NCBI GenBank assembly: GCA_020429915.1
Contig: JAGQKV010000005.1
Coordinates: 136,279-200,278 of the forward strand
Source: Candidatus Omnitrophota bacterium
GTDB taxonomy: Bacteria > Omnitrophota > Gorgyraeia > Zapsychrales > Zapsychraceae
Direction: 5' to 3'
Length of the DNA stretch: 64,000 nucleotides
Below the pieces are notes generated by a model. The model was not told the origin of the DNA. It saw only the letters and a list, made by a program, of their open reading frames with translations, and did no database searches. The first letter of the stretch is position 1. The number at the start of each line of letters is the position of its first letter. The translations under genes were made by a program, and so were the position numbers. Below, one piece after another: positions 17,760 through 39,900 of this stretch.

Positions 17760-18641
17760 ATGAATATCGAGAATAAAAAACAGTTCGCCACTATCGCGCT
17801 GGCGGTAGGCTTGGGTCTGACGGCCGCATTTTTAATGTCCCAATACGTCAAGAGCAGCATTGAGAACCAAACAAAGGCCTTGGCGAAGGATTATGAGAAG
17901 AAGGCGGCCGCACAAACCGCGGCATTGCGCAAGGAAATGGAAATCAAGAACCGGGAACTGCAGAAGCAAATGCAGGCTATGGCCAAGCAGCAACAGCAGG
18001 CCCTTGCTCAGCAGCTCGCCAACCTTCCCAAAGGCGGTGGAGTCAAGGCGACTACCGGGGTTCCCACGCAGATCGTCGATAGTACGGTCTTCGCGTCCAT
18101 TACTCCTCCGGGAAAGCGCGCCATCACATTGCTTATCGACTCGCTGTCCGCGGTCGGCGGTTTGGTCAATCCGGGCGACTATGTTGATATTTTGGGCGAA
18201 CTGGAGATTCCGCATCCCCAGGATCCTCAGGAAAAGCCGATTGAAATCACCTCTGTTCTGTTCCAGAACGTTCAGGTGCTGGCGGTCAATGCGAATTTTA
18301 AACCCGTGGGAAGCGCGCTGGTCTATCAGCAGCAGCAAAAGTCTCGGGCCCTTAACGTGACGCTGGCGGTCGATCCGGAAGAAGCCGGTTTGATCACATT
18401 TGCTCAAAAGTACGGAAAACTCAAGCTGGCGTTGCGCTCGCCAGCCGAGAAGGAGACCAAAGCCCTACAGGTGGCGGCCTGGGATTCCCTCGCCGACTAC
18501 GTTTTAGATAAACAAGGTACAGAACTTAATCTACCAAAAGCCAAAGCGCCGAGCAGGGTGGAAAACGACTACGTAGAAGAAGACTTGCAGGTCGATGATA
18601 CGCCCTTTGTGGAAATATTTCGGGGAGGCAGGGAGCTATAA
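17760..18641 (+). CDS. cpaB: Flp pilus assembly protein CpaB/RcpC-like
   Basis: N-terminal TM and coiled coil. The C-terminal RcpC-like block reads RAITLLIDSLSAVGGLVNPGDYVDILGEL...VQVLAVNA...LNVTLAVDPEEAGLITFAQKYGKLKLALRS. Confidence 0.7.
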   Translation: MNIENKKQFATIALAVGLGLTAAFLMSQYVKSSIENQTKALAKDYEKKAAAQTAALRKEMEIKNRELQKQMQAMAKQQQQALAQQLANLPKGGGVKATTGVPTQIVDSTVFASITPPGKRAITLLIDSLSAVGGLVNPGDYVDILGELEIPHPQDPQEKPIEITSVLFQNVQVLAVNANFKPVGSALVYQQQQKSRALNVTLAVDPEEAGLITFAQKYGKLKLALRSPAEKETKALQVAAWDSLADYVLDKQGTELNLPKAKAPSRVENDYVEEDLQVDDTPFVEIFRGGREL

Positions 18642-18644
18642 ATC

Positions 18645-20330: not shown

Positions 20331-20386
20331 CCTCGGTATATAATACTGTCTCTTATAAAAATACCGAGAGGTTTTAGAAGCAGGGC

Positions 20387-22552: not shown

Positions 22553-22593
22553 ATGCCTTTCCGCAAACTAGGTCCGGGATCCAGACTTTACTC

Positions 22594-22935
22594 ATGAAAG
22601 TGCTCAATCAGTCCAAAAATTCGGTTATTGCCGAGGATGCCACCTTGGCCGACACGTTCCCTTCACGCATGATCGGCTTGCTTAAGCATGACTCCCTCCG
22701 GAAGGGAGAAGGTCTTATCATAACGCATTGCAACTCCATCCATATGTTTTTCATGCGGTTTGCCATTGATGTCATATTTATCGACAAGGCGGACAAGGTC
22801 GTCGGCCTTGTCCCGAATATCCCTCCCAACCGGCTCAGTAAAATATACTTTTCTGCCGTTAAGGCCATCGAAGTTCCCGTAGGCGTCATTGGCGACTCCC
22901 GGACCGGGCTAGGCGATCAGCTTGTAATTCAATAA
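22594..22935 (+). CDS. DUF192 (COG1430) family protein
   Basis: 113 aa. The RMIGLL... and MFFMRFAIDVIFIDKADKVVGLV blocks are typical of DUF192. Confidence 0.6.
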   Translation: MKVLNQSKNSVIAEDATLADTFPSRMIGLLKHDSLRKGEGLIITHCNSIHMFFMRFAIDVIFIDKADKVVGLVPNIPPNRLSKIYFSAVKAIEVPVGVIGDSRTGLGDQLVIQ

Positions 22936-23007
22936 TCACATTGACCATTGTGGCCGCACTTGCTATACTAAAAGGCTTTATGTCCAATCTGAGGCTTAAG
23001 TGAGGCT

Positions 23008-24666: not shown

Positions 24667-24699
24667 TTGTTAATTTTCCTTGAAACGGCGTATATTTCC

Positions 24700-24727
24700 T
24701 TGACAGCAGGCCGTCTCGTGTTATACT
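24700..24727 (+). promoter_or_regulatory. Near-consensus sigma70 promoter TTGACA-16-TATACT
   Basis: Perfect -35 hexamer, 5/6 -10 hexamer, 16-nt spacer. Lies 335 nt upstream of the first pilin gene. Confidence 0.45.
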
Positions 24728-24858
24728 TGTAAGGCTTTACGCATATATATATATTAAGGCCCGAATCGGGGGGCTTGATGCCTAGTATGATCCTAATTAA
24801 CAGTGTCGGTTATTTTCGCAACGATTGTTCATTGATACCGTTGTCATTACCATATACT

Positions 24859-24887
24859 GCCTCTATACTTAAATAGAGGCTTTTTTA
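24859..24887 (+). terminator. Intrinsic terminator-like hairpin in the pilin leader
   Basis: GCCTCTA-tacttaaa-TAGAGGC followed by TTTTTTATT. It sits between the promoter at 24700 and the pilin ATG at 25062. Confidence 0.5.
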
Positions 24888-25061
24888 TTGAGTTGTACAC
24901 ACCCTTGGGGTGTTTTATCCTTCGCAACCGGGCGATAACCGGTTGTGAAGTGTCGTTCCCGGAGCATTGGAGACGGGCACGACAATATAGCTCTCAGGAT
25001 TCTGTCGATCTGTATCAATGATGAGAGCGAGGTTATCTGTCCAGTACGTAAGGTGGTTACG

Positions 25062-25229
25062 ATGAGGCTAATGCAGAAAGTCGTTAGGAACAGAAAAGGT
25101 CAGAGCATACTAGAATATGCCATCATCGCAACTATTGTGGCGGCAGCAGCCATTGCCATGAGTACCTACGTATTTCGGTCGGTTCAAGCAACCCAACAGA
25201 TAATTCTTCAGGAATCCAGAAATCAGTAA
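25062..25229 (+). CDS. Flp/Epd-like pilin 1 (55 aa, likely major pilin)
   Basis: MRLMQKVVRNRKG|QSILEY plus a hydrophobic helix. SD AAGGTGG lies 7 nt upstream. The track ORF is 5'-extended beyond the real start. Confidence 0.75.
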   Translation: MRLMQKVVRNRKGQSILEYAIIATIVAAAAIAMSTYVFRSVQATQQIILQESRNQ

Positions 25230-25290
25230 CCTAGTGACGTATTTTTGCTAGGGCTTTATCCTAAGGTGAACTTTTTTAAGGAGGAAGACA

Positions 25291-25512
25291 ATGCTTAAAA
25301 GGAATATAGCAATTAATGCTAAAAAGAAAAAGAAAGGTCAGAGTACCATTGAGTATATCATCTTGGTCGCTGCCGTTTTGGCCGCTCTATTGGTCTTCTT
25401 GGGACCGGGTGGTATCTTCCGTACGGCTTTTAACAATACACTGTCTACAGGTACCAATGGTATGGAGGACATGGCCAACCGTCTGCAATCATCACGGCCG
25501 ACTAGCAATTAA
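25291..25512 (+). CDS. Flp/Epd-like pilin 2 (73 aa)
   Basis: KKKKKG|QSTIEYIILVAAVLAALLVF, with SD AAGGAGG. Confidence 0.75.
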   Translation: MLKRNIAINAKKKKKGQSTIEYIILVAAVLAALLVFLGPGGIFRTAFNNTLSTGTNGMEDMANRLQSSRPTSN

Positions 25513-25559
25513 TGTCCGATAACTCAATGTTTGGTATGAATCAATAGGAGGATAAATAA

Positions 25560-25919
25560 ATGTTTAGAAAGTTGCTGAAAAACAAGAAGGCGCAAAATAC
25601 CGCCGAGTATGCAATCCTTATTTCATTGGTTGTAGCCGGTATTATTGCGATGCAAACGTATGCACAGCGTGCTCTACAAGCACGTGTACGTGACGCTGGA
25701 CAGTACCTGGCATCACAATCAGCTGCCCTGGGTAACACGAACCAGTACGAACCGTACTATCTGACAACTAACTACCTCGTGAGTTCTAACTCCGCGCAGA
25801 CACAGTTGTTGGATAACCAGACCATCCGTACTGAGTTGGATAACAACAGAACTCGTGCTTCTGGTGGTTTCCAGACATCAGCGTATGACACTTCATTGGG
25901 TCTAATTCAGGGGCTGTAA
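25560..25919 (+). CDS. Pilin-like protein 3 (119 aa, Ala at -1, QYEPYY motif)
   Basis: KNKKA|QNTAEYAILISLVVAGIIAM, with SD AGGAGG. Confidence 0.7.
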   Translation: MFRKLLKNKKAQNTAEYAILISLVVAGIIAMQTYAQRALQARVRDAGQYLASQSAALGNTNQYEPYYLTTNYLVSSNSAQTQLLDNQTIRTELDNNRTRASGGFQTSAYDTSLGLIQGL

Positions 25920-25983
25920 TCAGAAGATAGAGGTTTAATCCCTCTGAGATATCCTCAGAGGATTAAGTTAGGAGGATATATCA

Positions 25984-26310
25984 ATGCTTAAGTACTTCAA
26001 CAAAAGAAAGAAAAAAGGTCAGAGTACGTTGGAATACGCTATTCTGATTATCATTATTATCGGTGCGCTGTTGTCAATCCAGGTCTACATCAAGCGTGGT
26101 GTTCAAGGCCGTTTGAAGGGCGCTGCTGATGACATCGGTGATCAGTTCTCTAACGGAAACACGAATGTCGTCAAGAAAATGATCACTTCTTCTCAAACAC
26201 GTGACACATTCGCATCAGGTGTGACTGCATCCACTTTGACTCAGGATGAAGTCACGCTGGAAATCATGAACTCTGACGTTATGAATCTTAACCAAGAGTT
26301 CTGGGGATAA
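25984..26310 (+). CDS. Pilin-like protein 4 (108 aa, RGVQGRLKG motif)
   Basis: KRKKKG|QSTLEYAILIIIIIGALLSI, with SD AGGAGG. Confidence 0.7.
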   Translation: MLKYFNKRKKKGQSTLEYAILIIIIIGALLSIQVYIKRGVQGRLKGAADDIGDQFSNGNTNVVKKMITSSQTRDTFASGVTASTLTQDEVTLEIMNSDVMNLNQEFWG

Positions 26311-26349
26311 TAAGTATTGTGTAATATAATCACAATATGAAAATTCCTT

Positions 26350-26405
26350 AAACAAAACATGGCTTATTCGGGGGGATTTCTTCTCGGGTAAGCCATGTTT
26401 TGTTT
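26350..26405 (+). terminator. 17-bp stem hairpin after pilin gene 4 (terminator or mRNA stabiliser)
   Basis: AAACAAAACATGGCTTA pairs with TAAGCCATGTTTTGTTT across a 22-nt loop, followed by T-rich sequence. A TATAAT box at about 26459 lies downstream. Confidence 0.5.
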
Positions 26406-26497
26406 ATGTTTGTTAATATCTGCTGGCGACTGACCTTGGTGATTTGGCACCAATTGCGCTATAATATAGTAAGAACGCAATGCCCATAAGGATTCGC

Positions 26498-26893
26498 ATG
26501 CTACGAAAAATACCAAAAATCAGGATCACCGGTCAAAGGGGGCAGATGATTGCCAGCGAGTACGTTATTACGTTATTTATAGTTGTGGCTGTTATCTCAG
26601 GTCTTTCCGTTTTTTTCCGGCGGGCCGTACAGGGGCGTATCCGGGACGCCCATAACAGCATGCTCAATATAGTTCGGGATCGTATTGGGTCTCAATATGC
26701 GGGCAATAGCGTCTACATTCAGTATGAACCGTACTACCGCATTACCGATTCTGAATCGACTGTGGCCAACAACAATCAGAAGCAGGTACTTCCTTCATAC
26801 CCCTTATCTTCGGGGCTTTACCGGTCGAACCCGAATGAACAGTCACTGAGAATATCGAATACGACGACACTACCACCTGTAAATGCGGATTAA
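26498..26893 (+). CDS. Pilin-like protein 5 (about 131 aa, QYEPYY motif)
   Basis: Start chosen at the ATG with SD AAGGA (MLRKIPKIRITGQRGQMIASEYVITLFIVVAV). The track ORF begins at 26480 without an SD. Confidence 0.6.
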   Translation: MLRKIPKIRITGQRGQMIASEYVITLFIVVAVISGLSVFFRRAVQGRIRDAHNSMLNIVRDRIGSQYAGNSVYIQYEPYYRITDSESTVANNNQKQVLPSYPLSSGLYRSNPNEQSLRISNTTTLPPVNAD

Positions 26894-26895
26894 CT

Positions 26896-27240
26896 ATGCT
26901 TAAGAGTCTCGCCAAAAACAAAGAAGCACAGTCCATGATTGAGTATACTACTATACTTATCACTGTTATGGCGGTAATCGCGGCTATGAGTACCCTTGTT
27001 CGCCGTTCGTCGCAAGGTTGGATTAAGTTGGTGGCTGACCAGATCGGCGTGCAAAATCTTGCAGACCAAAGCTTTAACGACCTGAGGCAGGCGCAACTGG
27101 ATTCCAGCTACTCGCTTGTTCGATCTGATACCTCGAAAAGTACCTTAGAAACGGCCGGGATTATCAACTATATTTTTGATGACGCCGTTCGTACCGACGG
27201 AAATCAGTCCATTAATCTGGGGATCGTGCCGGAGCCCTAA
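26896..27240 (+). CDS. Pilin-like protein 6 (114 aa, Ala at -1)
   Basis: KNKEA|QSMIEYTTILITVMAVIAAM. Confidence 0.7.
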   Translation: MLKSLAKNKEAQSMIEYTTILITVMAVIAAMSTLVRRSSQGWIKLVADQIGVQNLADQSFNDLRQAQLDSSYSLVRSDTSKSTLETAGIINYIFDDAVRTDGNQSINLGIVPEP

Positions 27241-27258
27241 TACCTGCGAGGATAGATT

Positions 27259-27582
27259 ATGCTTAAGGTGTTGAAAATAAAAAACAAAGGACAATCAGCG
27301 ATAGAGTATTCGGTAATCCTGATTGTCCTTATGGGGGCCTTTTTGGCTTCGGCGAATTACTTTAAGCGGGGCGTTCAGGGCCGATGGAAGGAGTCCACAG
27401 ACTCATTGGGAGATCAGTATGATCCGCGGACATCAAATGGGCTGATCATCCATCGTTTGATCTCTAACCAAGCCACAGCCCTTACCGCTATTAGTACGCC
27501 TCAAGGATTGCAAACCACCAGACAGGATCAAACCAACTCATTGGAGCTAAAAAGCGGTTCTATCAACGTGGGAGCCTATTAA
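27259..27582 (+). CDS. Pilin-like protein 7 (107 aa, RGVQGRWK motif)
   Basis: KNKG|QSAIEYSVILIVLMGAFLA. Confidence 0.7.
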   Translation: MLKVLKIKNKGQSAIEYSVILIVLMGAFLASANYFKRGVQGRWKESTDSLGDQYDPRTSNGLIIHRLISNQATALTAISTPQGLQTTRQDQTNSLELKSGSINVGAY

Positions 27583-27603
27583 CTTGCCAAAGGGGCAACG
27601 GAC

Positions 27604-28896
27604 ATGAATCCGACGGTCGGATCAAAAAAGCATAGCAAGGCTCAAACCGCAATAGAGTTGGCGGTTTTCGGTTCTGTTATTATTTTTCTGATGGGGTTGA
27701 TTGTCCGAGCGGTGCTTGGGACGTCTTATCAACAAGGCAGCCAATTAAAGGCGCTCCGTCTGGCCATGTTGACCTCCTTTGAGTATAGCGAAGGGATCAA
27801 GGCGCCGCCGGGAGATTGGCGGGATGGAACGACCTCCCGTAACGCCGCATCTGTTTTAATCATCGAAGACCGGCTTTCAGCATCTTCCGCAAAATTCGCC
27901 ACGGTGGACCGGACGCCGATTTTATCTCAAGGAACCGCTACGCATTCGCGGAACTTATTCATGCCGGTGGAAATAGGTGAGTACGCCAATATTCCCATCG
28001 CAGATTTCTTCGTCAATGGTGTACATATTCCATTAACCTTAGGAGGGTTTGTGACCCACCCGTTGGATGACGTTGTTTTCCGGCAACGATTTAACCATGA
28101 GGCCACCGATTTTCGGCAATGCAGCGGGAACGTAAATTCGGTGTTCGAAGTCGTGAACGGAACGACTTGGTATCGCTTCGATCTGGATCACAGCGGCGGC
28201 GTGCCCAATGACGGGGTGGATGACACCAACTGTGACGATTTTTTCTGGCAGTGGCATGCCGGAGATCCCAGCCGGATTGATCCCGAGACCGGCGAGTGGA
28301 CAAACGTCGATGTGGATGCTGATGGTTACCCCGAACAGGTCTTGAGGGTAAACGGGGCTGCCAGCGTTACCACGTTGGATTATCAGGAAGGCGATATATA
28401 TTTCTCCAATGATCCGTCTGTCCCGGCGCCGGGATTCGGAAATCAGGAGGTCCAGATGTTTACGTTCTCCGACAATCCCCTGGGCACGGGCGACGGCGTA
28501 GGCACCTATTTGCGGGTAGATGAGGGGCGGTTATTTTCCCCGCTGACGGGACGGTACGCTCGGGATGCCCAGCGCAAGGACTCCGTAGACATCATCCAGC
28601 GAACGTTGCAATTGACCAAAAACACGGAAAGATTCTGTACTAATGCCGGAGTGTTAGTCACGGCCGGAACACCGGAGGGGAATCGGGCCGGATGGACGGC
28701 AGCGACCCCTAATCCTGTGGAAGTATGTTGTAGTGGCAGCGGATGTTGTTTTGGTCCGGTTACCATAACCCAGACTTGTATGGTGTATGATCAGCCGTAT
28801 CCGCTCATTTATGTGCGGAGTAGAATCGTGGATAAGCACGGCCGGAAGTATATTACACCGACCGACTCCGATCCGGTTGTAAACTTCACACGATAA
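27604..28896 (+). CDS. TadE-like pseudopilin with large C-terminal domain (430 aa)
   Basis: SKA|QTAIELAVFGSVIIFLMGLIVRAVLG matches the TadE-type N-terminus. The C-terminal region contains CCSGSGCC. Confidence 0.65.
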   Translation: MNPTVGSKKHSKAQTAIELAVFGSVIIFLMGLIVRAVLGTSYQQGSQLKALRLAMLTSFEYSEGIKAPPGDWRDGTTSRNAASVLIIEDRLSASSAKFATVDRTPILSQGTATHSRNLFMPVEIGEYANIPIADFFVNGVHIPLTLGGFVTHPLDDVVFRQRFNHEATDFRQCSGNVNSVFEVVNGTTWYRFDLDHSGGVPNDGVDDTNCDDFFWQWHAGDPSRIDPETGEWTNVDVDADGYPEQVLRVNGAASVTTLDYQEGDIYFSNDPSVPAPGFGNQEVQMFTFSDNPLGTGDGVGTYLRVDEGRLFSPLTGRYARDAQRKDSVDIIQRTLQLTKNTERFCTNAGVLVTAGTPEGNRAGWTAATPNPVEVCCSGSGCCFGPVTITQTCMVYDQPYPLIYVRSRIVDKHGRKYITPTDSDPVVNFTR

Positions 28897-28950
28897 GAAG
28901 TATTGTCGAAAAGAGTTTGTATGTATAATGGTAAAGGCAGGTGATGCAAG

Positions 28951-29247
28951 ATGTTGAAAACTCAGTGCAGAAAGGCCGCCAAATCACGTGGACAGACCAT
29001 GATCGAATTCACGTTTTGTATGATTATCGTATTTTTGATGATTTACTCTATCACCAAGGTTTTTGAATGGTCTGGTCGGGAACTGGTGTCGCGGAGAGTG
29101 GGACATACGTCCCGGTTAACGACTTCAGGCGGGGGCCTTACCCGAAGTTATACCTCCGCCGCCGATAGTGAGCAAATAGCCCAAATATCCCCGTTTTATT
29201 CTTCCGGGGTCGACATGAATGCCGTTTGGCGAGGCGGGGTTAACTAG
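28951..29247 (+). CDS. TadE-like minor pilin (98 aa)
   Basis: KSRG|QTMIEFTFCMIIVFLMIYSI. Confidence 0.6.
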   Translation: MLKTQCRKAAKSRGQTMIEFTFCMIIVFLMIYSITKVFEWSGRELVSRRVGHTSRLTTSGGGLTRSYTSAADSEQIAQISPFYSSGVDMNAVWRGGVN

Positions 29248-29251
29248 AATA

Positions 29252-32200
29252 ATGACCAAATTTCTTCACAATCTCCAGCGTTCGAAAAAAGGTCAGGTGG
29301 CCGTCGTAATACTGTTGATTGTGGCCTTTGCCCTCATTTTTTATGCCGCTACGTTGAATCTGGGTCGCATCGGGCAAAACAAAGTGGTTACGCAGATCGG
29401 CGCCGCGCAAGGGGCATCCGCATTGGCCTCGGCCATGGCCAGTTACGGGCAATCCCTGTTTATGCAACAATTGGGCGGCCGCCAGAAGAAATGCCAGTCT
29501 TCCGGGCTGTTGGGGGCCATTTTGGGATTTGTTTTGGCCGTCGTTCTTACCATATTTCTCTGGGAAGCGGCACCCGCCACCATGCAGCTCGCCGCCCAGG
29601 CCCTTTTGGTCATCGGGACGGTCCTGGCGGCCACAAGTCTAGTCCTACAAATTACCGTCATACAACCGGGTATTACCAGTGCGTGGAACAGCCTAGCAGC
29701 GGATCTCTTGCCGCTTGTGGACCAGTTTATGGAAAATGCGCTACGGGGTGCGCTGCAAAGTGCGACCTCAGACCCGGTTCAGGTTCCTGACCTGAACGAT
29801 ATGGATCTGGACGGGTCGTTCGGTTTGGATGCGGTGACCAGTGAGGCGATCGACAACATATCCCGGTTCAGTCTGTACTATGCCCAGATATTTGACGGTA
29901 TTACGGTCAACTTTATCCCCGAAGCAGAGAATTTTCAGGTGGCCCTTCAGGATTTTGTCTACCAGTTGCCTCCCGTAGGTCCGAACACCACGGCCGGGGG
30001 ACTTCCCGCCACCTGTGGTGCTGCTCCGGCCTGCGGACCCGATCAGGAATGTGTCGATGTGGAAACCGCCCCCGTTTGTGTCCCGGCATGGGGGCTTTGG
30101 GATCCTCTCCCCGAGTATTTTGTCCCCGGGCCCATTCGGCCGCCACCAATTGATGTTATCTATCCATTTACGATACCACAAGATTTGACGCACCCGTGCT
30201 TTAGTGATCCTGCGAACGTACCATCGGTGTGTAATCCGTGTTGTCTTCCGTTAACGACACCTGACCCCAGGGGACCTTCCTTCGGTCAGCTGAGGGCTAG
30301 GCCCGGTTGTTGCGAGTGTTCTACCCTGCCCTCCGTCATCACCATTCCGGACCCCACCGACCCGACCGGTGTAGCGACGATAGATGTGTTTAATCCGGAT
30401 TTCTGTACCGTGGACGGATGTATTGATGCGTGTGGCGGCCCGTTGCAATGCCCTGTAAACGCGGCATCGCGGGCCTGTTGTGATGCTTGCGGGGATATTA
30501 CCCAGGAATGTGGAACGTCAGCCACCTGTCAGGCCCTCAGCCCCTACGGATTCACCGAGCCCACACTGGGAACCTTTTACGCGTGGGTCTATAACGCCTA
30601 TGAAGAAAATTGGGAAAACTCGTTCCGGTCCTTCCGTGAGCAACTCGGCCGGGATGATGAGCACCGTCTGTATTTCAAGGATTCCAGCAACCCCAATTGG
30701 GCGCCACAATTTGCCCCGCCTTGGCTGGGAAGTCGGTTTTATGCGGACGACTCGACTGGTTTTTATATCGGTCTTCCGGTCGTTCCTCCGGCTGTCGGGG
30801 AAAACCGGCGTGGCGTCTTTCCATTTTTATGGAAGATTACAACGTGGGGGTATGATCTGGATGATTTAACCACGCCCGATCCTACGGATGTGGATCCCAT
30901 TGATGATCCGTTTGACCAACGCTGTAAGTGGTGCGATGAAAATCGCGGGGTGGTTTGTGATCCGCGTCTGCCGTATCAGATGGTACAGTTAAATTTACCC
31001 TTTGATCCCACAACTCTAACTATTTACCCAACATACTGCGTCGACACCTATATTGATAACGTCAGTCTGATCCCATCAGGGGGATCGCTTGAATATCCTG
31101 CCGCGACGTGTGTCGATCCGGATACGTATGCAGGAAACGCATTTTGGAAGCGGGGCGCCGACCGGTTCTGTTCGGAAGGCGACATTGGCGGGGATTCTGC
31201 CTGGCCATATGAAAGCCAGTGTCCGAAATATACGGATGGTGGCTGTTTCCTGGATCCAAACGGCAACGGGGTGGCTGACTGTCCGGCAGAGTGCGACACG
31301 AACGGCAACGCGATTCCGGCCCTCTGCCAGTGTGGCGATCCCTCGGCGACGGATCCTTTGCTCGTACGCGGGGATCTCTTCCCGGAAGATGTATTGGATG
31401 AGCTCATATATGGTTTGACCGCGTTTTTTGACGATGCCAACGCATTTCTTGCCAGGGGACGGGCGAACATCGCTATTGATTTTGAGAATTGGTTTAACGA
31501 CTGGCAGGCCTGGATTGACCCCGGTCCATGGGCCAATCAAGCCGATGTGCTCGGCGATCCGGCTTATCCCAATCCTTATCCGGACTGCTACCCTTGGGAT
31601 ACCGACTATGACCCATCAACGCCCGACGTCTGCCAATCGGAGCCCGGGCAACTGTATTATTGGCTGCGTAACATCAATTTGATTCATGATGAACTTATTG
31701 AGATCAAGGAGACAAGCCATGCCGGCGTCAACTGTAACCGGGACCCGTGGTGCGTTCCCATTGCCGGTTGTGCAGATGTATCCGCATTTGAAGAGGTTAC
31801 ATTCGATTATAATGCCAATGGCATCAACGGCGATGTCGAAGACATCATCGCATGTCTGACATTCAATGTGGATGGCTACGACTACGCTTGTAACGGCGGC
31901 GTTCCAGACGCTACGTGTCTGAGGGCTACGGGAGACCGACAGGGGAACGATTTCCGTTATGCCAATTGTATGTTGTCCTGTTCAGCCGCGGCATGTACCA
32001 ATTTGCCGCGGTCTGTGTTGGCGCCCGCAACTTACGATCCGAACGCATATGTAGCGGCAAACGTCCTGGACGAACCGGATATGTCGGCCATGCTCTTGTG
32101 TGTCCACAGCTGTGGTAATCCCACTTGCACCGCCTTGCCCGCAAACCGGAGTTCAGACGGGACGCCGTACGTTTATACGGCTACGCCGCCGCCGGCCTTT

Positions 32201-33172
32201 GATCCGGCCTTGGATTGTACCGGATTACAGCTGAATGATGCCAACGGCTGGCGGACAGCTGTCCGGGATTCTCTGTTGATGGCTAACCCTACATGTGACA
32301 TCGCACCCGGAGGCTGGCTGGATCTGACCGGGACTTCGGCTATTGAGGCTGCAAATCAAGTTATAAAGATGCAATTGCGCCGCGACTTTCTCGAGGATCT
32401 CGTCAACGATATGAATCAGTTTATCGTCACCATGAATACGGCCCGGATCAAGTTTTATGAGTTTCTGACGGCCCCCGGCCCAGTGGCCGACCTGATTCAG
32501 GCTCGATTTGACTATGATGCGAATCCACCGGATCATTTCCCGTTCCAGGCCATTTATGGCTGGCAGGATCCGATCCCGCCTGAAATTCGTCTGGGAGCCC
32601 CGGGAGGCGAATCCTATTGGCATATCGTCAAAGTTGAGGGACGAATGCCCAAGAGGTGTGACAATGCCTGCGGTGTAGGCGGAAATCCGGATCCCGAGTG
32701 GCCCAAAGTCCGCACATATACCAAGAAGATGGGATTGAAGCGATGTTATGAACTGGTTAACACAGATGGTATCGTCAAATTCCGTGTGTTACGTTTTGAC
32801 GAGGCGCCTAATTCGACGGGAAGTGGTCTCACATTCCCGAACGGACAGCCGCTGTGGAAATTCCGTTTCTTCCACCCCAGCCCTAATCGAGGGGATGTTG
32901 ATGCCGCTACACTGGGGACCACATGTGACTCGATTATGATCACAGATCCCAGAGTGCCGGTAGATACGTTCAAAGGGGCGTTTTTCATGAACCAGCGGGT
33001 CGGAACTGGAGATACAGACCCTGTTTTGGGGAATAATTGGAACTGTTGGAACAGAACCCACTTCATTCTTGCCAATGGCGGGATTGGAACAGAAGTGTGC
33101 GCACAATATTACCTTAAACAGGGTGTTCGCCCCGGTATGACATTTTCATTTATCCCTTGCGAAGCGTTCTAA
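29252..33172 (+). CDS. Giant TadG-like pilin-domain protein (1306 aa) with two extra TM helices and an extremely Cys-rich extracellular region
   Basis: Start at the ATG 29252, just after the upstream gene's stop at 29247. N-terminus SKKG|QVAVVILLIVAFALIFYAATLNLGRIG is TadE/G-like (PF13400 type). More than 70 Cys, in CxxC, CC and CxC clusters. Confidence 0.7.
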   Translation: MTKFLHNLQRSKKGQVAVVILLIVAFALIFYAATLNLGRIGQNKVVTQIGAAQGASALASAMASYGQSLFMQQLGGRQKKCQSSGLLGAILGFVLAVVLTIFLWEAAPATMQLAAQALLVIGTVLAATSLVLQITVIQPGITSAWNSLAADLLPLVDQFMENALRGALQSATSDPVQVPDLNDMDLDGSFGLDAVTSEAIDNISRFSLYYAQIFDGITVNFIPEAENFQVALQDFVYQLPPVGPNTTAGGLPATCGAAPACGPDQECVDVETAPVCVPAWGLWDPLPEYFVPGPIRPPPIDVIYPFTIPQDLTHPCFSDPANVPSVCNPCCLPLTTPDPRGPSFGQLRARPGCCECSTLPSVITIPDPTDPTGVATIDVFNPDFCTVDGCIDACGGPLQCPVNAASRACCDACGDITQECGTSATCQALSPYGFTEPTLGTFYAWVYNAYEENWENSFRSFREQLGRDDEHRLYFKDSSNPNWAPQFAPPWLGSRFYADDSTGFYIGLPVVPPAVGENRRGVFPFLWKITTWGYDLDDLTTPDPTDVDPIDDPFDQRCKWCDENRGVVCDPRLPYQMVQLNLPFDPTTLTIYPTYCVDTYIDNVSLIPSGGSLEYPAATCVDPDTYAGNAFWKRGADRFCSEGDIGGDSAWPYESQCPKYTDGGCFLDPNGNGVADCPAECDTNGNAIPALCQCGDPSATDPLLVRGDLFPEDVLDELIYGLTAFFDDANAFLARGRANIAIDFENWFNDWQAWIDPGPWANQADVLGDPAYPNPYPDCYPWDTDYDPSTPDVCQSEPGQLYYWLRNINLIHDELIEIKETSHAGVNCNRDPWCVPIAGCADVSAFEEVTFDYNANGINGDVEDIIACLTFNVDGYDYACNGGVPDATCLRATGDRQGNDFRYANCMLSCSAAACTNLPRSVLAPATYDPNAYVAANVLDEPDMSAMLLCVHSCGNPTCTALPANRSSDGTPYVYTATPPPAFDPALDCTGLQLNDANGWRTAVRDSLLMANPTCDIAPGGWLDLTGTSAIEAANQVIKMQLRRDFLEDLVNDMNQFIVTMNTARIKFYEFLTAPGPVADLIQARFDYDANPPDHFPFQAIYGWQDPIPPEIRLGAPGGESYWHIVKVEGRMPKRCDNACGVGGNPDPEWPKVRTYTKKMGLKRCYELVNTDGIVKFRVLRFDEAPNSTGSGLTFPNGQPLWKFRFFHPSPNRGDVDAATLGTTCDSIMITDPRVPVDTFKGAFFMNQRVGTGDTDPVLGNNWNCWNRTHFILANGGIGTEVCAQYYLKQGVRPGMTFSFIPCEAF

Positions 33173-33195
33173 GCTTATGTCTTGGAGGCATTTGT

Positions 33196-33558
33196 ATGCT
33201 TGTGCAAATTCATAGCCGTAAGGCTCAGTCCACAATTGAGATAGCCAGCTTGGTGGTCTTTGTGCTCACGGCAATGTTAATCTTTCAGAAATACATCGCG
33301 CGCGGTATGTATGGCCGCTGGAAACAGGTCGGTGAATCCTTCGGACAAGGTCGTCTTTACGATCCAATTACTTCAGTTGCCTGCGGCTACGATCAGTGGC
33401 AGGATACCGGTCTTTGGTTCAATCAAACCTGTTTTGACGAGGATTGCGGCGAACGGGATTGCGTCGCCGAGACCAAAGATGATGCTAACTGCGTAACATG
33501 TATTAGCACAACTTGTCGATCCAGTTATGGTGGTCGCGACGTATGTAACGATCCGTAA
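33196..33558 (+). CDS. Pilin-like protein 11 (120 aa, Ala at -1, Cys-rich C-terminus)
   Basis: Start at the ATG with a GGAGG SD. SRKA|QSTIEIASLVVFVLTAMLIF, plus the ARGMYGRWK motif. Confidence 0.65.
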   Translation: MLVQIHSRKAQSTIEIASLVVFVLTAMLIFQKYIARGMYGRWKQVGESFGQGRLYDPITSVACGYDQWQDTGLWFNQTCFDEDCGERDCVAETKDDANCVTCISTTCRSSYGGRDVCNDP

Positions 33559-33735
33559 TTTAAGATTGTAACGTCTTCTCTCCCTGCAATTTTTTTGTCA
33601 AAAACAATTTGACATGCCTTCATCGAAACGCCCCAAATTTTTGTGAAATAAGTTTTTGTCAGGGCTGGCATTTTTGTCGCGATATTGTATAATTATATGT
33701 ACGCTTGATAATCGAATAAGCGAAAGCGCGGAACT

Positions 33736-34593
33736 ATGCTGATCCTAATCCTACTTTTGGTCGCGGCCTCGGTAACATTAATCGGCTGGCAACTTATTCC
33801 GAGTGTCTACAGCCGCACGGCCGTTATCAGCGAGCGACGTCAACAAAAGCTCTCCAATACCATGGAGAAGGTGATGTCGCGGACGGATGCCCGCAAGCTC
33901 AGCCGGGTGTTCATTATGGCCCCGCTCATCCTTTCCGCGGGTTTCTATTTCATTTTCCCAGCAGAAATGCGGTTTTTTGGTATCGTCTTCGGTCTTATTC
34001 TGGGCCTCCTGTTTCCGGGTATTTATATCCAGATGTTGACCGGTAAGAACCGGGAAAAATTCGACGCGCAACTCATTGATGCCCTTATGATTATGTCCAG
34101 CTCCTTCCGCGGGGGGTTGAGTTTGGTCCAGGCCATGGAGGCCGTGGAGCAGGAAATGCCGGATCCGATCCGCAAGGAGTTCGGTATTGTCCTCGGGGAA
34201 AACAAGATGGGGGTTTCGCTGGAAGAGGCCCTCAACCACCTGTACAATCGTATGTCATCCATATCTTTGCAGCAAATGATCACGGCCATCTTGCTGGCCC
34301 GGGAAACCGGTGGTAACCTGCCGGTTATTTTTAATCGGATTGTAACCAATATTCGTGAAAGCCGAAAGATACAACAGAATTTGGATACACTTACGATCCA
34401 GGGGAAAATTCAGGGGGCGGTTATGACCCTGCTTCCCATCGGGTTCGGTTTTATTGTTTACTCCACGAACCCACAGATGATGGAAAATATGTTCACATCG
34501 CAACTCGGCCGCAGTTTGTTGATCTACGCGGCCTTTTCGTGGTGTATCGGGGCCTACATGGTGTGGAAAATTAGTACTTTTAAGGATTTCTAG
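33736..34593 (+). CDS. tadB: Flp pilus assembly inner-membrane protein TadB (T2SS-F fold)
   Basis: 285 aa, with TM helices and a cytoplasmic GspF-like domain. Confidence 0.8.
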   Translation: MLILILLLVAASVTLIGWQLIPSVYSRTAVISERRQQKLSNTMEKVMSRTDARKLSRVFIMAPLILSAGFYFIFPAEMRFFGIVFGLILGLLFPGIYIQMLTGKNREKFDAQLIDALMIMSSSFRGGLSLVQAMEAVEQEMPDPIRKEFGIVLGENKMGVSLEEALNHLYNRMSSISLQQMITAILLARETGGNLPVIFNRIVTNIRESRKIQQNLDTLTIQGKIQGAVMTLLPIGFGFIVYSTNPQMMENMFTSQLGRSLLIYAAFSWCIGAYMVWKISTFKDF

Positions 34594-34594
34594 T

Positions 34595-35467
34595 ATGTTT
34601 GCTATCTTATTGATTAACACATACTTATGTATATTTTTTATGATAATGGGACTAATCCCGGTGCAATGGGAACACCGTCCGACATTGAGCGCCTTGGGGA
34701 TTCAGCCCACGGCTCCGAAAAAGAAAAAAAGCCTGACTTCAATCATCCGGATTATTGCCAAGCTCAACAAGCCGGTCTGCCAAGGGGGGTTGCGGCAGCG
34801 CATCGAGAAGGAGCTGTCCATAGCGCATATCAATATCACGCCTGAGGAATTTGTATTGGCAAAAGAGTTATGTATTATACTCGTATTGTTTGTTACGTAT
34901 CCGGCGATTAGCCCGGATATGATGATGTTTTGGCTGTTCATGAGCATGGGGGTCGGGTATGTATTGCCGGAACTCCTTGTGCGCAATAAGATTAAGAAGG
35001 TGAAGGCGACAATTGTCAAAGAGTTGCCGGATGCGATCGACTTATTGGGGTTGTGTGTAAATGCGGGGCTTGACTTCATGCTGTCTCTCAAATGGGTGGT
35101 GGAAAAGTCACCACCCTCCGTAATGATCGACGAGCTCAACGTAGTATTGCAGGAAATTAATGTCGGGAAAACCCGCCGGGATGCTATCAAGGACTTAGCG
35201 GCACGTTATGAACTCCCGGATCTGTCCACTTTTTCCCGAACGCTTATCCAAGCCGACAAAATGGGGACTTCGGTTACCGAGGCCCTGAATATTCTCTCCG
35301 AAGACATGCGCCAGGCCCGTTATCGCCGCGGTGAACAGTTGGCCCTTAAGGCACCAATGAAGATGCTTGTGCCGCTGCTGATGTTCATTTTTCCGGTTGT
35401 AGGTATCCTGGTGGCCGGTCCGATTCTCCTCGACTTTATCGAAAACAATCCGTTCGAAAAGATGTAA
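34595..35467 (+). CDS. tadC: Flp pilus assembly inner-membrane protein TadC (T2SS-F fold)
   Basis: 290 aa, GspF-like (LPDAIDLLGLCVNAGLDF...). Its ATG is adjacent to the tadB stop. Confidence 0.8.
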   Translation: MFAILLINTYLCIFFMIMGLIPVQWEHRPTLSALGIQPTAPKKKKSLTSIIRIIAKLNKPVCQGGLRQRIEKELSIAHINITPEEFVLAKELCIILVLFVTYPAISPDMMMFWLFMSMGVGYVLPELLVRNKIKKVKATIVKELPDAIDLLGLCVNAGLDFMLSLKWVVEKSPPSVMIDELNVVLQEINVGKTRRDAIKDLAARYELPDLSTFSRTLIQADKMGTSVTEALNILSEDMRQARYRRGEQLALKAPMKMLVPLLMFIFPVVGILVAGPILLDFIENNPFEKM

Positions 35468-36136
35468 CGCGGGACTGCTTGCGAGATGGATGCTTAGTAG
35501 CAGCTTTTCTCCAAAGGGCTTTTTTGCGGTTCCGTGCCATTCCTCATGCACTTCCAATAGTTGACAAATAGCCACATCATTTTGCATACAAGTCCGTCCT
35601 TTGGCGGAATTCGCTGTTTCAAAATACCAGATGGGATTCGTGAAGTATTCGAATTTTTTGAACACTACATGCACGCTTTTTTTCTGTGGAAAGCACAACA
35701 TATGGGGGCCGCGGCCAAGGATATGACGAAAAATCTTCAGCGACACAAATTCAAAGGGCTCATATTTTCGTTCTAAGGCCCTTTTTTTGCGAGAAAGCGC
35801 TAAACGTAGGGGAATGTATTGTCCAAAAAGAAAACGTCCAAAATAGGGCTGTTTTTAGCCAGATTGGACATTTGCGGTTGGTGTGGAGCCTCAATCTGCT
35901 ACCACCACCAGTTGTCGTGACGTTCGGTCTGCATAATCACAAAGGAGCCATTGCGCTTTAGATTGCAAGTATCAGGTTCGTTCATCGGTCAGTATTTTCT
36001 GAAGGCGCCCGGTTCAGTGGGCTCTCATCACCGCGGATGCGGATGTATGTAAGCCTATTTAATAATATTTGTAATTTTTTAGCCGGATCAAAACACCTCC
36101 CGGCCGACGACGGTGTTTATACATGCGGAGACAACT

Positions 36137-36152
36137 TTTTCTCGACGAGAAT
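36137..36152. repeat. Copy 1 of 16-nt element TTTTCTCGACGAGAAT (13-bp palindrome TTCTCG-A-CGAGAA)
   Basis: Exact duplicate of the copy at 36332-36347. Lies inside the AT-rich spacer upstream of the giant ORF. Confidence 0.6.
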
Positions 36153-36331
36153 TACTACAATTTCTACATACAAGATAGGTATCTAGTTATTTTTTATGCT
36201 AGTAAAAATGCTAGATAATATTTGAAATCTTCCTATAAATATATTATAAATGTATATACGAATCATGATCTGACAGGCTGTGTCCGGGTATATCTGCGAA
36301 AACGTTTTCTTTTAGGTATTTTTACAGAACA

Positions 36332-36347
36332 TTTTCTCGACGAGAAT
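36332..36347. repeat. Copy 2 of 16-nt palindromic element
   Basis: Identical 16-mer 195 bp downstream of copy 1. Operator-like. Confidence 0.6.
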
Positions 36348-36448
36348 ATGGGCTAATTTAGCGAAATTTTATTGAAAATAAAACGTCTAATTTGTTGTAA
36401 GCCGTTTATTTGCAATAACATTTATTTGTAAAAATACTTGCTAAGTCG

Positions 36449-36476
36449 TTGATCTATATATATAATATGATATACT
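36449..36476 (+). promoter_or_regulatory. Candidate promoter TTGATC-16-TATACT
   Basis: AT-rich context. Lies 470 nt upstream of the giant ORF. Confidence 0.35.
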
Positions 36477-36646
36477 CTTACCATACGGGAACATGTGTGG
36501 TCGTTGTTTGAGTCGTAGGATTAATAAGTCAGGCGCCAGCACTTACTAATCAACGATTTATCAATGAATTCAACGGGGATAGCATGGTAACAGCTCCAAC
36601 CAAAAGACAAGATCTGTCCAAGCAAGTCGTCCATTCATTCAGCGCA

Positions 36647-36675
36647 GGCTGCCATTCACAGGCAGTCTTTTTTTT
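36647..36675 (+). terminator. Intrinsic terminator-like hairpin plus T8
   Basis: GGCTGCC-attcaca-GGCAGTC followed by eight T residues. Confidence 0.45.
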
Positions 36676-36945
36676 GTCCACCGAAACGAGTAATAAGAGA
36701 CCTTAATCATGATGGCTAGTACATTAATTCAGCTAATATATATTACTTTGACAATACATATAGTATTACACTTAATGGGAGAAAAAGGAAAATTCGGTAA
36801 ATTTAGTTGCCGATTAGTCAAATCATCACAAAGTGATGGCATATCGGCAAAGCGGTTGTATCAGGTTGCTCAGGCGCAAGCTGACGGCCGCAGGCAAATG
36901 TCCAATCAAAACTGGCGCTTTTTGGACATTTAATTATTCAGATTT

Positions 36946-39900
36946 ATGGACGAGAAGCCGGACAACTTGGAACCGGAAGAATCAGGAAATCCTAGCCCTC
37001 AGGGTGAGGATTTTCGTCTGTCTCCGGACTTGGTTAATCCCGATTCTCAGGCCGATACAGTTCCTGGCAAGACGCTGGAGTTGAATTTTGCCGAAGATGA
37101 CGACGTGGGAGTGCATCCCGGGCAAATTGACTTGGGCCCATACGTCGAGTCCGACCGCAAAATGCCGACCTTCCACAGCCGCTTCCATTCCTGGATGAAA
37201 GCCGTATCTCTTGCAATCATATTGGTTTTTGTTCCGGAGCAGGCCAGCTGGGCATTTAATTACAATCCGTTGGTTCTGTGGGGTGACAAATCTGCGTACC
37301 CGTCTCAATCGGCCGCTCAGCCGCATGGCGCGGAATTCAACGAGCTTGTTTCCGAACACATTGCCGGTAGTGTTTACAAATTGCTCGGAGACGTCGCCTA
37401 CAAGGACAATGCCCGAGTCAAATTGCAGCTTCCGGCTGGCGGGGCAAACTCAGACCAAGATGTTTCGTTGAACGTAAACATCAAGGGCGAGAATCCCTTT
37501 AATCTTGAATACATAAATCAGGTAGTATCTTGGTTGCGCCAGCCGGAAATCCATCCGCTTAACTGCGGGGTTTATGCGTTGCGGGATATCCTGACTGCGT
37601 ATGAAATTGATGTTGAGCTGGAGGAGTTGTCCGTTTCCTCGCTTGCTGTCGACTTGATGAGTCATATTGTCAAGCCGGGCGAGCCGAAGCTCAAGACCTC
37701 GTTGTATTCCATCAGCAAAATCGTCGACGCCTACGGCCTCGGATTTCGCAATGCCCGTCTGCCGCCGCAGGATGTTGCCAAAATCGACCCGCCATTCATC
37801 GCCAGTTTCAACAATGAACACTTCGTCACTGTCACCGCCATCCAGGACGGCATTGTATACTACAACGACATCGGCCGGCCTTCGCAACTGAGTGAAGCTT
37901 CTTTCGTTTCACAGTTGAGTGGTTTTGTCCTCGCCCGAAATCTCAACCAGCATCAAAACTTAGAAGTCGAATATATTCCGGATTCTATGGCCGCCTTTGT
38001 TTGGGGAGATAAGTGGCGCGACCAGTCTGACGACTTGCCGGGGATGTATGGTTTCTGGGATGAGTTCGGCGGCATCATCATCGGCTTGGCGCTGGCAGGG
38101 ATCGGATACGGTTTGGGGCAGCTGGCCGAAATGTACAAAACGGTCGATATGTTGGCCAAGCTGGCGCAACTTTTTGGTTCACTCGGTCAAATGCTGGGCG
38201 GGGGGATGGCCGCATTTGCGGTTAGCTTCGTGTTCTCTTATGGTCTTTCCCAGTTTGCTTCCTCGGTAGCGACAGTCTGTTACATGAAGGGCGCCTGTAG
38301 CGAAGAAGGGGCCATGTTGTTAAACATAGGTATCTCCGTCGGGGGGAATCTGTGGGCCGGAGGTGTAATTGAGGCCGCGAATGCCGGAGTAACGTCTGCG
38401 TCCGGAGCTACATTGGGAACCATGATGATGGCGGGACTCAAACAGGCCATGGTCAATTTGCCGTCGGCTCTCGCGTATTCTCTTGTTAAACGTTTTGTCA
38501 TGGTCAAGGTCGCCGAGTTTCTTATCAAGGAGTTGGATCTTGCGGACGAGGACGGCGAAGTAGATATCCTGACGCAAACCTTGGTTAATATTGTTGGGGG
38601 GGCTGTCGGTGGGATTATTGGATCGGCAGCCAGTGCTGGGGTGCAGTGGGTTGGTGGAAAGATTGTCGGAGACTCAGGCAATCAAGGCGGTTCCGTCACG
38701 CATGATTCCGAAGGCAAAGTCAACGGATACACGCCGAACTACTCTATATATACCAACGCCCAGGCGAGTGGTTTCTTTATGGATTTCATGAGCCAGGCGC
38801 TTACCAACGAGTTGACCGGGGCCTTTAACCAGCTCGTTGGTCTCGCTGGCCGATACCTTCTTGATGCTGTGGGGGTGGATGCGGATTCCGTGTTGTCTCA
38901 GGTGTTTGGGCAAATGATGTCTTCGCTGATGGCTGTCAGCATGGAGGCCTCGGCCGCCGCAGATTTGGACGAACATCGGGACGAGATTGAGGAAGAGCTC
39001 ACGAACATATTGGTGGAAGAAGGACACCTAAGAAGATCCGGCGATACATTGGAGGTGGTTGCAGACAAGAAACCTACGCAGGCGCAGATGGACGAGTACA
39101 CCCAGCGGGCCATGAACAAGGTCCGGGGAGGGATCGGTTTCCTGTCTCGCCTGAGCGGTGCTTTTTCGCAAATGGGCGGTGGCTTCATGAACCTTTTCAA
39201 CAGCGGGCGTACCAACAATAGCGGGACGCCGGGGGCGCCGCCTGTTGATCCGACAAATTTGGTCGGCACCGCACCTGGTTCCGAGGCGGGGGAAGGCAAG
39301 GGAGAAGGTAAGCTTGATTTAACGGCTGCTGTCGATTTGGCGCTGAACCAACAAGGAGCCGCAGTAAGCCTGTCGAATTTTCAGTTCAACCGGACCTTCA
39401 ATCTTATGACCCAAACCATGATGACCGAGGTGACCGGTATGATCCTGCGCGGTTTGATCAGTCTTGTGGCTGCCGCCGTCATGGACGTGATTGAAAATGA
39501 GTTTGTGGAAGGCGAACGCGAGGGGGTCAATCAAACGGACCGGTTCACGTTATTTATTACCCGGCTCATCACCTTCGGGGTGATGACAGGTGTTACGGCC
39601 GCCGTAGCCATTGCCACTTCCGAGGATGTGGTGACGCCCGACGGAAAAGCGGCTACGGCTGCAGCCGGGGAAAGTGGCGGCGCCACTGGCAGTTTCCTCA
39701 ACGCGGACCCGGATAACGCGACGACAAGGAACGGCATGTCCAAGAGCGAGCAGATGTGGTTTTTTGCGCTGGAGCCGTTTGCCAATCTGTTCATGGGTAT
39801 GGTGCGTAGTATGGCGACGGCCAACGGGACATCTCCGCTCTTCTTCTCATTCGAAGAAATCGGCAACGGCGGCCAGGCGTTAACCGATGAGCAGAAGAAT

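Follow-up and report, generated by a model that had tools for sequence, protein, structure and literature searches.

Why does a bacterial protein of more than 9,018 amino acids (aa) carry a cysteine peptidase domain of family C39 near its N terminus, and what might that domain cut? The question is raised by a 64,000-nucleotide stretch of DNA from a Candidatus Omnitrophota bacterium (GenBank assembly GCA_020429915.1, contig JAGQKV010000005.1, positions 136,279 to 200,278 of the forward strand), which we call the window and to whose positions all coordinates below refer. Omnitrophota are ultra-small bacteria that are thought to be predatory or episymbiotic, and giant proteins of 10,000 to >100,000 aa are their signature. 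An earlier note on this stretch had described a C39/papain-like domain at the head of a giant open reading frame (ORF), apparently outside the cytoplasm, and had suggested that it processes its own protein or a partner. Our analysis confirmed that observation and partly supported its interpretation: the domain is a genuine C39 peptidase domain, it is followed by a tail that appears to be homologous to a double-glycine leader, and it might cut its own chain there.

C39 domains have been reported near the N termini of Omnitrophota giant proteins, beside predicted signal peptides, and it was suggested that they might cleave the giant protein or other substrates; the giant genes follow a locus with gspD/E/F, rcpC, a Rotamase_2 peptidyl-prolyl isomerase (PPIase), and many small genes with class III signals (West-Roberts et al. 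2023, bioRxiv 10.1101/2023.11.21.568195). A cluster of 24 proteins with a PF03412 architecture has also been described among the long proteins of Omnitrophota (Nielsen 2026, bioRxiv 10.64898/2026.06.07.730766). The arrangement, the N-terminal C39 domain, and the idea of self-cleavage were already published in the 2023 preprint, and the finding itself is not new. We found no mention in the text of these papers of a leader-like tail, of the per-residue conservation of the catalytic triad, or of catalytically dead paralogues terminated at Trp-Gly (WG); as far as the searched literature shows, the tail and the dead truncated paralogues are new details.

The C39 domain of the giant protein

The giant ORF (36946 to 64000, forward strand) begins with an ATG at 36946, is preceded in frame by a TAA stop codon at 36931, and runs without a stop to the end of the window. 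Its C39 core occupies aa 187 to 331 (37504 to 37938, forward strand), an assignment that draws on Pfam, an AlphaFold2 (AF2) model, Foldseek, and residue conservation. The Pfam profile Peptidase_C39 (PF03412; gathering score, 22) matched a 177-aa fragment with 36.2 bits (E value, 6.4e-9), well over the gathering score and far beyond chance. With the first 450 aa as the query, the match covered aa 206 to 330 (32.2 bits; E value, 1.1e-7), and in a 4,500-aa query it still reached 25.9 bits. PF13529, which the earlier note had named beside PF03412, scored 14.1 bits and did not reach its threshold of 24, and the NCBIfam PCAT model matched through its peptidase portion alone (22.6 bits versus a cut-off of 853).

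The predicted structure also identifies the fold as C39. AF2 on the lone sequence gave a predicted local distance difference test (pLDDT) score of 35, which was unusable, and was superseded by a run on a 46-sequence alignment that modeled aa 169 to 370 with confidence (mean pLDDT, 93.1; predicted template modeling score, 0.88). Foldseek against the PDB returned 20 matches at an E value of ≤1e-3, all 20 of them C39 or C39-like domains. Among these were LahT150 (6mpz; E value, 5.6e-7; template modeling [TM] score normalized to the target, 0.70), PCAT1, ComA, and the C39-like domain (CLD) of HlyB (7sgr and 3zua). With the PCAT/AMS peptidases (LahT150, PCAT1, and ComA; MEROPS C39), the window domain shares the fold (TM score of ∼0.63 to 0.70, normalized to the target), the order Cys-His-Asp, and an identical His-Asp spacing.

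The three strings on which the earlier note had based its claim (QPEIHPLNCG, NNEHFVTV, and YYND) are found at the places it gave, in the frame of the giant ORF, and the residues concerned are Gln199 (codon 37540 to 37542), Cys207 (37564 to 37566), His292 (37819 to 37821), and Asp308 (37867 to 37869). When a family profile was aligned to PDB sequences, ...HPLNCG... fell on ...ALECG... of LahT150 and ...EHFVTV...YxDIG on its ...NHFVVL...INDP, and Cys207, His292, and Asp308 aligned with Cys27, His101, and Asp117, the catalytic triad of LahT150 (PMC6363468). The spacing of 16 residues between His292 and Asp308 is canonical for C39. The catalytic Cys is present in 187 of 194 related domains (96%), the His in 188 of 193 (97%), and the Asp in 157 of 187 (84%), with another 15 carrying Glu. 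Of the Gln-Cys-His-Asp set that had been proposed, the last three residues are intact and conserved, but the Gln is not: Gln199 lies eight rather than six residues before the Cys, and its column holds D, G, N, or K in relatives. At the position of the canonical oxyanion Gln, six residues before the Cys, the family has E, D, G, or S and no Gln, unlike PCAT/AMS peptidases; in the LahT150 structure, this Gln lies 4.3 Å from the oxyanion, and its role has been questioned (PMC6363468). We conclude that window positions 37504 to 37938 encode a genuine C39 (clan CA) cysteine peptidase domain, and judging from its residues, the domain is very probably catalytically competent.

The leader-like tail and a candidate self-cleavage site

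An HMMER scan with aa 80 to 370 over 1.84 billion representative proteins matched 330 clusters (at 50% identity) at an E value of ≤1e-3 and 66 at ≤1e-30. When genomes were scanned with the same 291-aa query, each species being represented once, the entire query was encoded at 43 loci with 35 to 66% identity; all 43 are in metagenome-assembled genomes labeled Omnitrophota/Omnitrophica or in third-party-annotation bins that are unclassified or labeled "Planctomycetales," and 40 of the 43 ORFs reach the end of the fetched DNA (>3,600 aa). Together with shared synteny, this level of identity points to Omnitrophota as the source of the window. What is conserved is an N-terminal module of ∼290 aa, consisting of a targeting motif, a linker helix, the C39 core, a variable loop, and the motif AFVWGxKWxDxSDxLPG, after which Gly/Ala-rich stretches follow. 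Segments of the body (aa 1000 to 2000 and aa 3000 to 4000) each recovered just 1 of 44 loci by tblastn, suggesting that the body evolves fast and that the head is the only part conserved across species. A sister clade with ∼30% identity and the same targeting motif heads giant ORFs of up to 5,637 aa.

Within this module, aa 342 to 356 (EYIPDSMAAFVWG↓DK, with the arrow marking the candidate bond; 37969 to 38013, forward strand) form a leader-like tail that we propose as a self-cleavage site or pseudo-substrate. Few stretches in the first 520 aa are as well conserved as its AFVWG. Among 84 distinct sequences of the window's clade, the consensus is V/I-P/S-D/E-x-x-x-A-F-V/I-W-G-S/N/D-K/R-W, with Gly354 invariant in all 84, and the window's own tail reads I344-P-D-S-M-A-A-F-V-W-G354-D-K-W. 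AF2 modeled aa 339 to 358 with pLDDT values of 93 to 98, a short helix at aa 346 to 349, and bridges at aa 342 to 343 and 353 to 354; because the model is confident there, the tail is predicted to be an ordered part of the folded unit and not a floppy linker. A second conserved motif, DxSDxLPG (aa 359 to 366; 38020 to 38043, forward strand), precedes the first Gly/Ala-rich hydrophobic stretch.

In the sister clade, the corresponding tail is a canonical double-glycine leader, in short LSDxEAKxIxGA↓R. Thirty-nine of its 64 domains carry [ED]x3[LIVMF]xG[AG] at a fixed offset, with the last residue (P1) 59 residues after the catalytic His, against a chance expectation of 0.027 per 45-aa window, and most of the others have near-variants such as EALKAITGA or AQKIMGA. 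The full logo, L(−12) S/T(−11) D/E(−10) x E(−8) A(−7) K x I/V(−4) L/K/M G(−2) A(−1)↓R/G/K, agrees with the published pattern of leaders recognized by C39 peptidases, namely, Leu-12, Glu-8, Leu-7, Val-4, and Gly-Gly/Ala/Ser (PMC6363468). An NCBIfam scan of 49 sister-clade tails gave weak matches, in which four of the seven families were lantibiotic or bacteriocin leaders: mersacidin/lichenicidin (the best; E value, 0.0055), lacticin 481, a class I lanthipeptide leader, and a bacteriocin-like leader. MAFFT aligned the two clades column for column, placing Gly354 on G(−2), Val352 on I/V(−4), and Ile344 on L(−12). The alignment indicates that the window's tail is homologous to the canonical leader motif of the sister clade.

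Paralogues that stop at this very point supply a second line of evidence. Seven cluster representatives end exactly at ...(F/Y)(V/I/F)WG (P0056 [L045:664-1383], P0064, P0070, P0072, P0103, P0132, and P0136), and in the one that was checked in DNA, a TAA follows the WG immediately and is itself followed by an unrelated small ORF. Some stand alone, with ∼200 to 250 aa, and others are the C-terminal domain of larger proteins; the N terminus of P0136 resembles a STAND-type NTPase, and P0064 has an HExxH motif and repeats. In all seven, the catalytic Cys is replaced by Ser, Gly, or Thr, and in five of the seven, the His is replaced as well. Across 113 domains aligned through the Gly, all 106 chains that continue beyond it keep the Cys and all 7 that end at WG have lost it. 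A Fisher test of ending at WG versus losing the Cys gave a P value of 2.6e-11, which is overstated given the shared ancestry of the seven and is not to be taken at face value because they form one clade in a neighbor-joining tree. The alignments still indicate that the structural unit ends at WG and that the catalytic residues are dispensable where no chain extends past it, which together is what self-cleavage at the tail predicts.

These observations can be combined into a proposed mechanism, the likeliest of those considered here. The peptidase would be fused to its own substrate, unlike in PCAT exporters, where it is fused to the transporter. Amino acids 342 to 356 would serve as its built-in double-glycine-type leader, and the C39 domain would cut its own chain at or next to Gly354 (between Gly354 and Asp355, or one residue on), in cis or between neighboring copies. 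The cut would free a head of ∼355 aa from the variable body during export or maturation, and the new N terminus of the body (DKWRDQSDDLPG...) would fall just ahead of the first hydrophobic stretch. The autoprocessing suggested in the earlier note gains comparative support from the conserved tail, the canonical motif of the sister clade, and the dead paralogues that end there, but the position of the tail in the substrate groove, the cleavage, the exact bond, the membrane side, and the coupling to export are all what we infer.

Several points weigh against the proposed self-cleavage. The window's own tail gave no leader match in NCBIfam. The motif is degenerate in the window's clade, with a Trp beside the invariant Gly, with S, N, or D (D in the window) after it where G, A, or S would be canonical, and with neither Glu-8 nor Leu-7 retained. 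The canonical oxyanion Gln is missing from the domain. The predicted secondary structure of the tail would fit just as well with a small hairpin that packs against another part of the domain, and the dead paralogues make the tail part of the folded domain unit whether it is cleaved or not. Their perfect correlation between truncation and loss of the Cys may reflect a single evolutionary event. Taking both sides together, we consider it an evenly balanced question whether a protease fused to its own leader detaches the head from the giant body.

A further step would make the head a self-removing module for export or maturation, possibly feeding the Tad-like machine encoded next to it. To our knowledge, cleavage is coupled to the export of C-terminal cargo in all double-glycine systems, and it is by analogy with these that we suggest an export role for the head. 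The C39 domain would then have moved from the transporter to the N terminus of the substrate together with its recognition segment. It would fire once, and the body would leave through the Tad-like machine or by means of its own membrane and ATPase parts. Within the clade of the window, coevolution would have changed the site from Gly-Gly to Trp-Gly-(Ser/Asn/Asp), implying altered S2/S1 specificity. We put this export-leader model forward tentatively, as a possibility with slightly less than even prospects.

For studying how such giant chains are exported and matured, the head module offers the easiest way in, because it is the only part of them conserved across species. If the built-in cleavage site is real, self-cleavage becomes testable on a fragment of ∼300 aa, the site would define the mature N terminus of the giant body, and a C39 domain would have been found fused to its substrate instead of to an ABC transporter. 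The combination of targeting motif, C39 domain, and VWG or GA tail would also provide a signature for locating the real starts of giant genes in fragmented metagenomes.

Membrane side and competing explanations

On which side of the membrane the head would act depends on its N-terminal segments. A poorly conserved acidic extension (aa 1 to 75; 36946 to 37170, forward strand), which is 33 to 109 aa long in relatives, leads into the conserved targeting/anchor motif (aa 76 to 112; 37171 to 37281, forward strand; 111 sequences). In order, this motif comprises the basic FxSRFKxW(I/M)(R/K), a hydrophobic core of 11 to 12 residues, and P(E/D)QxSWAFNYNPxVLW. The earlier note had placed the C39 domain directly behind the hydrophobic segment (aa 86 to 97), but ∼90 residues intervene, including a linker at aa 113 to 186 (37282 to 37503, forward strand) with a conserved helix at ∼aa 133 to 155 that is also present in stand-alone paralogues. 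Such a targeting/anchor segment and ∼90-aa linker set the window domain apart from PCAT/AMS peptidases, as does its possible location outside the cytoplasm.

The 15 residues before the hydrophobic segment contain a mean of 3.05 Lys and Arg, versus 0.05 after it (111 sequences), and the positive-inside rule thus clearly favors a predicted N-in/C-out orientation. The motif may act as a signal peptide, as a signal anchor, or as a re-entrant hairpin. From these features, we consider the C39 domain somewhat likely to lie outside the cytoplasm; if the module is periplasmic, it would be the first known example of a C39 peptidase at work outside the cytoplasm. The charge bias around the next (second) hydrophobic segment was uninformative on topology. 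Depletion of Cys was dropped as a topology marker: it spans all 9,018 aa, and since the whole protein, including its DEAD-type domain, is depleted, it cannot discriminate between compartments.

One alternative, a real possibility although not one that we would call probable, keeps the module in the cytoplasm, with the short hydrophobic stretch and P-E-Q-x-SWAFNYNPxVLW acting as a re-entrant or interfacial anchor and the C39 domain working on the inner membrane face, like that of PCAT exporters. A core of 11 to 12 residues is not long enough to cross the membrane as a helix, a Pro-Glu-Gln break comes next and then a second, aromatic amphipathic stretch, and the motif is far more conserved than usual signal peptides. 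However, the short h-region with Pro and S-W-A↓F behind it also resembles a signal peptidase I site, and the strong Lys/Arg asymmetry speaks against the cytoplasmic placement. It is well established that all characterized C39 domains are cytoplasmic (PMC6363468), whereas West-Roberts et al. place those of the giant proteins beside predicted signal peptides. Two features of the relatives fit the cytoplasm: sister-clade chains are strongly basic right after the GA site (RSRR and RKRR), before the next hydrophobic stretch, and dead paralogues are fused to domains of cytoplasmic type.

The C39 domain might instead act in trans, on other sites of the giant protein (polyprotein maturation), on partners in the Tad system, or on surface proteins of prey, with a structural or autoinhibitory tail. 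The conserved triad would serve this purpose as well, and West-Roberts et al. propose cleavage of the giant protein or of other substrates. That dead stand-alone paralogues retain the tail within the fold, that the window's tail is noncanonical at −1 and −3, and that in some large relatives with two or three C39 copies no leader-like motif follows the later copies would all suit such a role. Candidate substrates are scarce, though. In the giant protein, double-glycine leader motifs are no more frequent than expected (0 observed versus 0.67 expected), and the same is true of 121,229 aa of 44 relatives (8 observed versus 8.9 expected), which speaks against a large number of canonical internal sites of cleavage. 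The giant protein is free of internal repeats, and no conserved small ORF suited to be a leader-bearing substrate occurs in the spacer upstream of its gene. The catalytic residues, moreover, have been lost exactly where no chain follows the tail. We consider action in trans unlikely, although it deserves to be kept in mind beside self-cleavage.

Much less probable is a noncatalytic binding or chaperone module that tethers the unfolded giant chain, like the CLD of HlyB. The fold matches include that domain, the window domain lacks the canonical Gln, and such a role is mentioned by West-Roberts et al. The HlyB and window domains also share an association with very large secreted proteins. C39-like domains lack the catalytic Cys, however, and the HlyB domain is dead, whereas the window domain retains the full triad, kept in the family at 96% (Cys), 97% (His), and 84% (Asp) despite strong divergence elsewhere; as to the Gln, it may be unneeded in LahT150 (PMC6363468). 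The WG-terminated paralogues are a closer analogue of the HlyB-type CLD than the window domain is.

Finally, it is hardly credible, and we rejected the idea, that the C39 domain substitutes for a missing prepilin peptidase: the Tad locus next to the giant gene is strictly syntenic with it and looks complete except for an A24 peptidase, none of which lies within the 64-kb window, and its pilin-like ORFs (at least eight) carry sites of the form G↓QSxxEY or A↓Q, ending in a small residue, but their leaders are short and basic (KKKG↓Q) and have neither an amphipathic Leu-12/Glu-8/Val-4 helix nor a Gly at −2, an A24 peptidase may be encoded elsewhere in the genome, and sister-clade giants with the same head are not found beside tadBC.

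The giant body, its genomic setting, and known systems

Over the 9,018 aa contained in the window, the C39 domain and a DEAD-type helicase/ATPase-like domain (aa 6148 to 6286; 55387 to 55803, forward strand) were the only Pfam matches. The latter scored 28.3 bits against PF00270 (cut-off, 26) and 25.3 bits in another profile search. No match to PF07517 (SecA_DEAD) and none to ABC_membrane or ABC_tran was obtained anywhere in these 9,018 aa, and self-BLAST detected no internal repeats. Behind the head lies a Gly/Ala-rich, weakly hydrophobic region (aa 373 to 892; 38062 to 39621, forward strand) with ∼6 candidate membrane segments, and a hydropathy scan of the giant protein gave 13 peaks, 10 of which are distinct segments. 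Cysteines occur only at positions 207, 445, and 451, the last two being a semiconserved pair within the Gly/Ala-rich region. This Cys content (3 in 9,018 aa, 0.03%) contrasts with the 56 Cys (4.25%) of the TadG-like protein encoded upstream. The giant ORFs of the 43 relatives average 0.15% Cys, and their noncatalytic Cys residues occur mostly as close pairs (CX5C, CX6C, and CX2C), including the one at aa 445/451.

Directly upstream of the giant gene, profile matches identified a Tad/Flp-pilus-like secretion locus (17760 to 35467, forward strand), preceded by a Rotamase_2 PPIase (16779 to 17747). The locus encodes RcpC, a secretin with TonB_C, a TadZ-TadA fusion, DUF192, at least eight pilin-like ORFs, a TadE-like and a TadG-like protein, TadB, and TadC, with matches to Secretin, T2SSE, two T2SSF (TadB and TadC), and Class_IIIsignal. 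Within 18645 to 22552, the secretin carries its TonB_C domain at the C terminus (57.8 bits), and the next gene encodes a 721-aa fusion of a ParA/TadZ-like ATPase with a T2SSE (TadA/CpaF) ATPase. The small pilin-like ORFs, with Flp/class III signal N termini (..KKG↓QSTIEY..), lie between 24945 and 29247, and one of them exceeded the Pfam Class_IIIsignal threshold. The TadE-like (430 aa) and TadG-like (1,317 aa; 29219 to 33172) proteins come after the pilin array. Between DUF192 and the array, a 552-aa ORF (23008 to 24666) showed a weak N-terminal HTH_32 match alone and had no tblastn counterpart in related loci, whose fetched flanks mostly end downstream of it.

An AT-rich spacer of 1.5 kb (35468 to 36945; GC fraction, ∼0.38 to 0.40) without a conserved ORF separates tadC from the giant gene. 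All 37 related loci whose upstream sequence extends far enough show the same succession of pilins, TadE-like, TadG-like, TadB, TadC, AT-rich spacer, and giant gene; their spacers measure 0.6 to 3.7 kb, and the longer ones contain genes for REP-type Y1 transposases or AAA_14/DUF4143 ATPases. Across the 38 spacers (that of the window and the 37 others), no conserved small ORF was found, and only these insertions and the 5' end of the giant gene recur. Rfam gave nothing above its gathering thresholds on the spacer, which may be a long regulatory region or leader. Giants of the sister clade do not adjoin tadBC.

Taken as a whole, the locus resembles the "Archaeovorin"-type giants of West-Roberts et al. 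The ORF of >9,018 aa agrees with the description of the type (at least 7,000 aa and multiple membrane segments); it has hydrophobic segments, a DEAD-type domain, and an N-terminal C39 domain after a signal-peptide-like segment, and upstream of it lie a Rotamase_2 PPIase, RcpC, GspD/E/F-type genes, and small genes with class III signals. The type is also characterized by a divergent SecA-type DEAD domain, for which the 9,018 aa in the window gave the PF00270 match but none to PF07517. Nothing essential sets the window protein apart from this type, of which it is another member. Among the PCAT/AMS systems, it is with the substrates that the sister-clade tail agrees, through the Leu-12/Glu-8/Val-4/Gly-Ala consensus, and the window C39 domain differs in that it is not fused to an ABC transporter but heads its own apparent substrate.

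The LapG/LapA system can serve as a working analogy. LapG is a periplasmic BTLCP-family cysteine protease, and it cuts the retention module at the N terminus of the giant adhesin LapA; there, too, a cysteine protease that removes an N-terminal module controls the release or display of a giant surface protein. The system differs in protease family, in acting in trans, in its di-alanine site, and in type I secretion, and we claim no homology.

Some relatives show departures from the single-copy arrangement or from an intact gene. Proteins P0057, P0069, P0077, P0082, P0088, P0094, P0102, and P0106 (2,000 to 3,200 aa) have two or three internal C39 copies, the first of which (∼aa 610 to 770) precedes a GA/GS leader-like motif, whereas the later ones do not. 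A 1,572-bp ENA contig (P0005) encodes exactly aa 1 to 222 of the window's giant protein and then continues into a class II aminoacyl-tRNA synthetase C terminus (PF00587). An assembly chimera is the most likely explanation, and the contig places the organism of the window or a very close relative in a public metagenome. On a long contig with the same tadB-tadC-giant synteny (L001; ENA ERZ1286166 contig_5344), the giant gene is split into dozens of short called genes, probably by frameshift errors of long-read assembly, and contigs of this kind conceal giant genes from protein-level searches.

The first 12,452 nucleotides of the window are an origin region, with parB, parA, and yidC on the reverse strand, dnaA, dnaN, gyrB, and gyrA on the forward strand, and a tRNA at 12379 to 12452; the cumulative GC skew has its minimum at ∼5 to 6 kb. 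The Tad locus of V. archaeovorus LiM lies at 12 to 30 kb of its chromosome (Seymour et al. 2023), and the layout of the window is the same, with an origin-proximal Tad locus in both.

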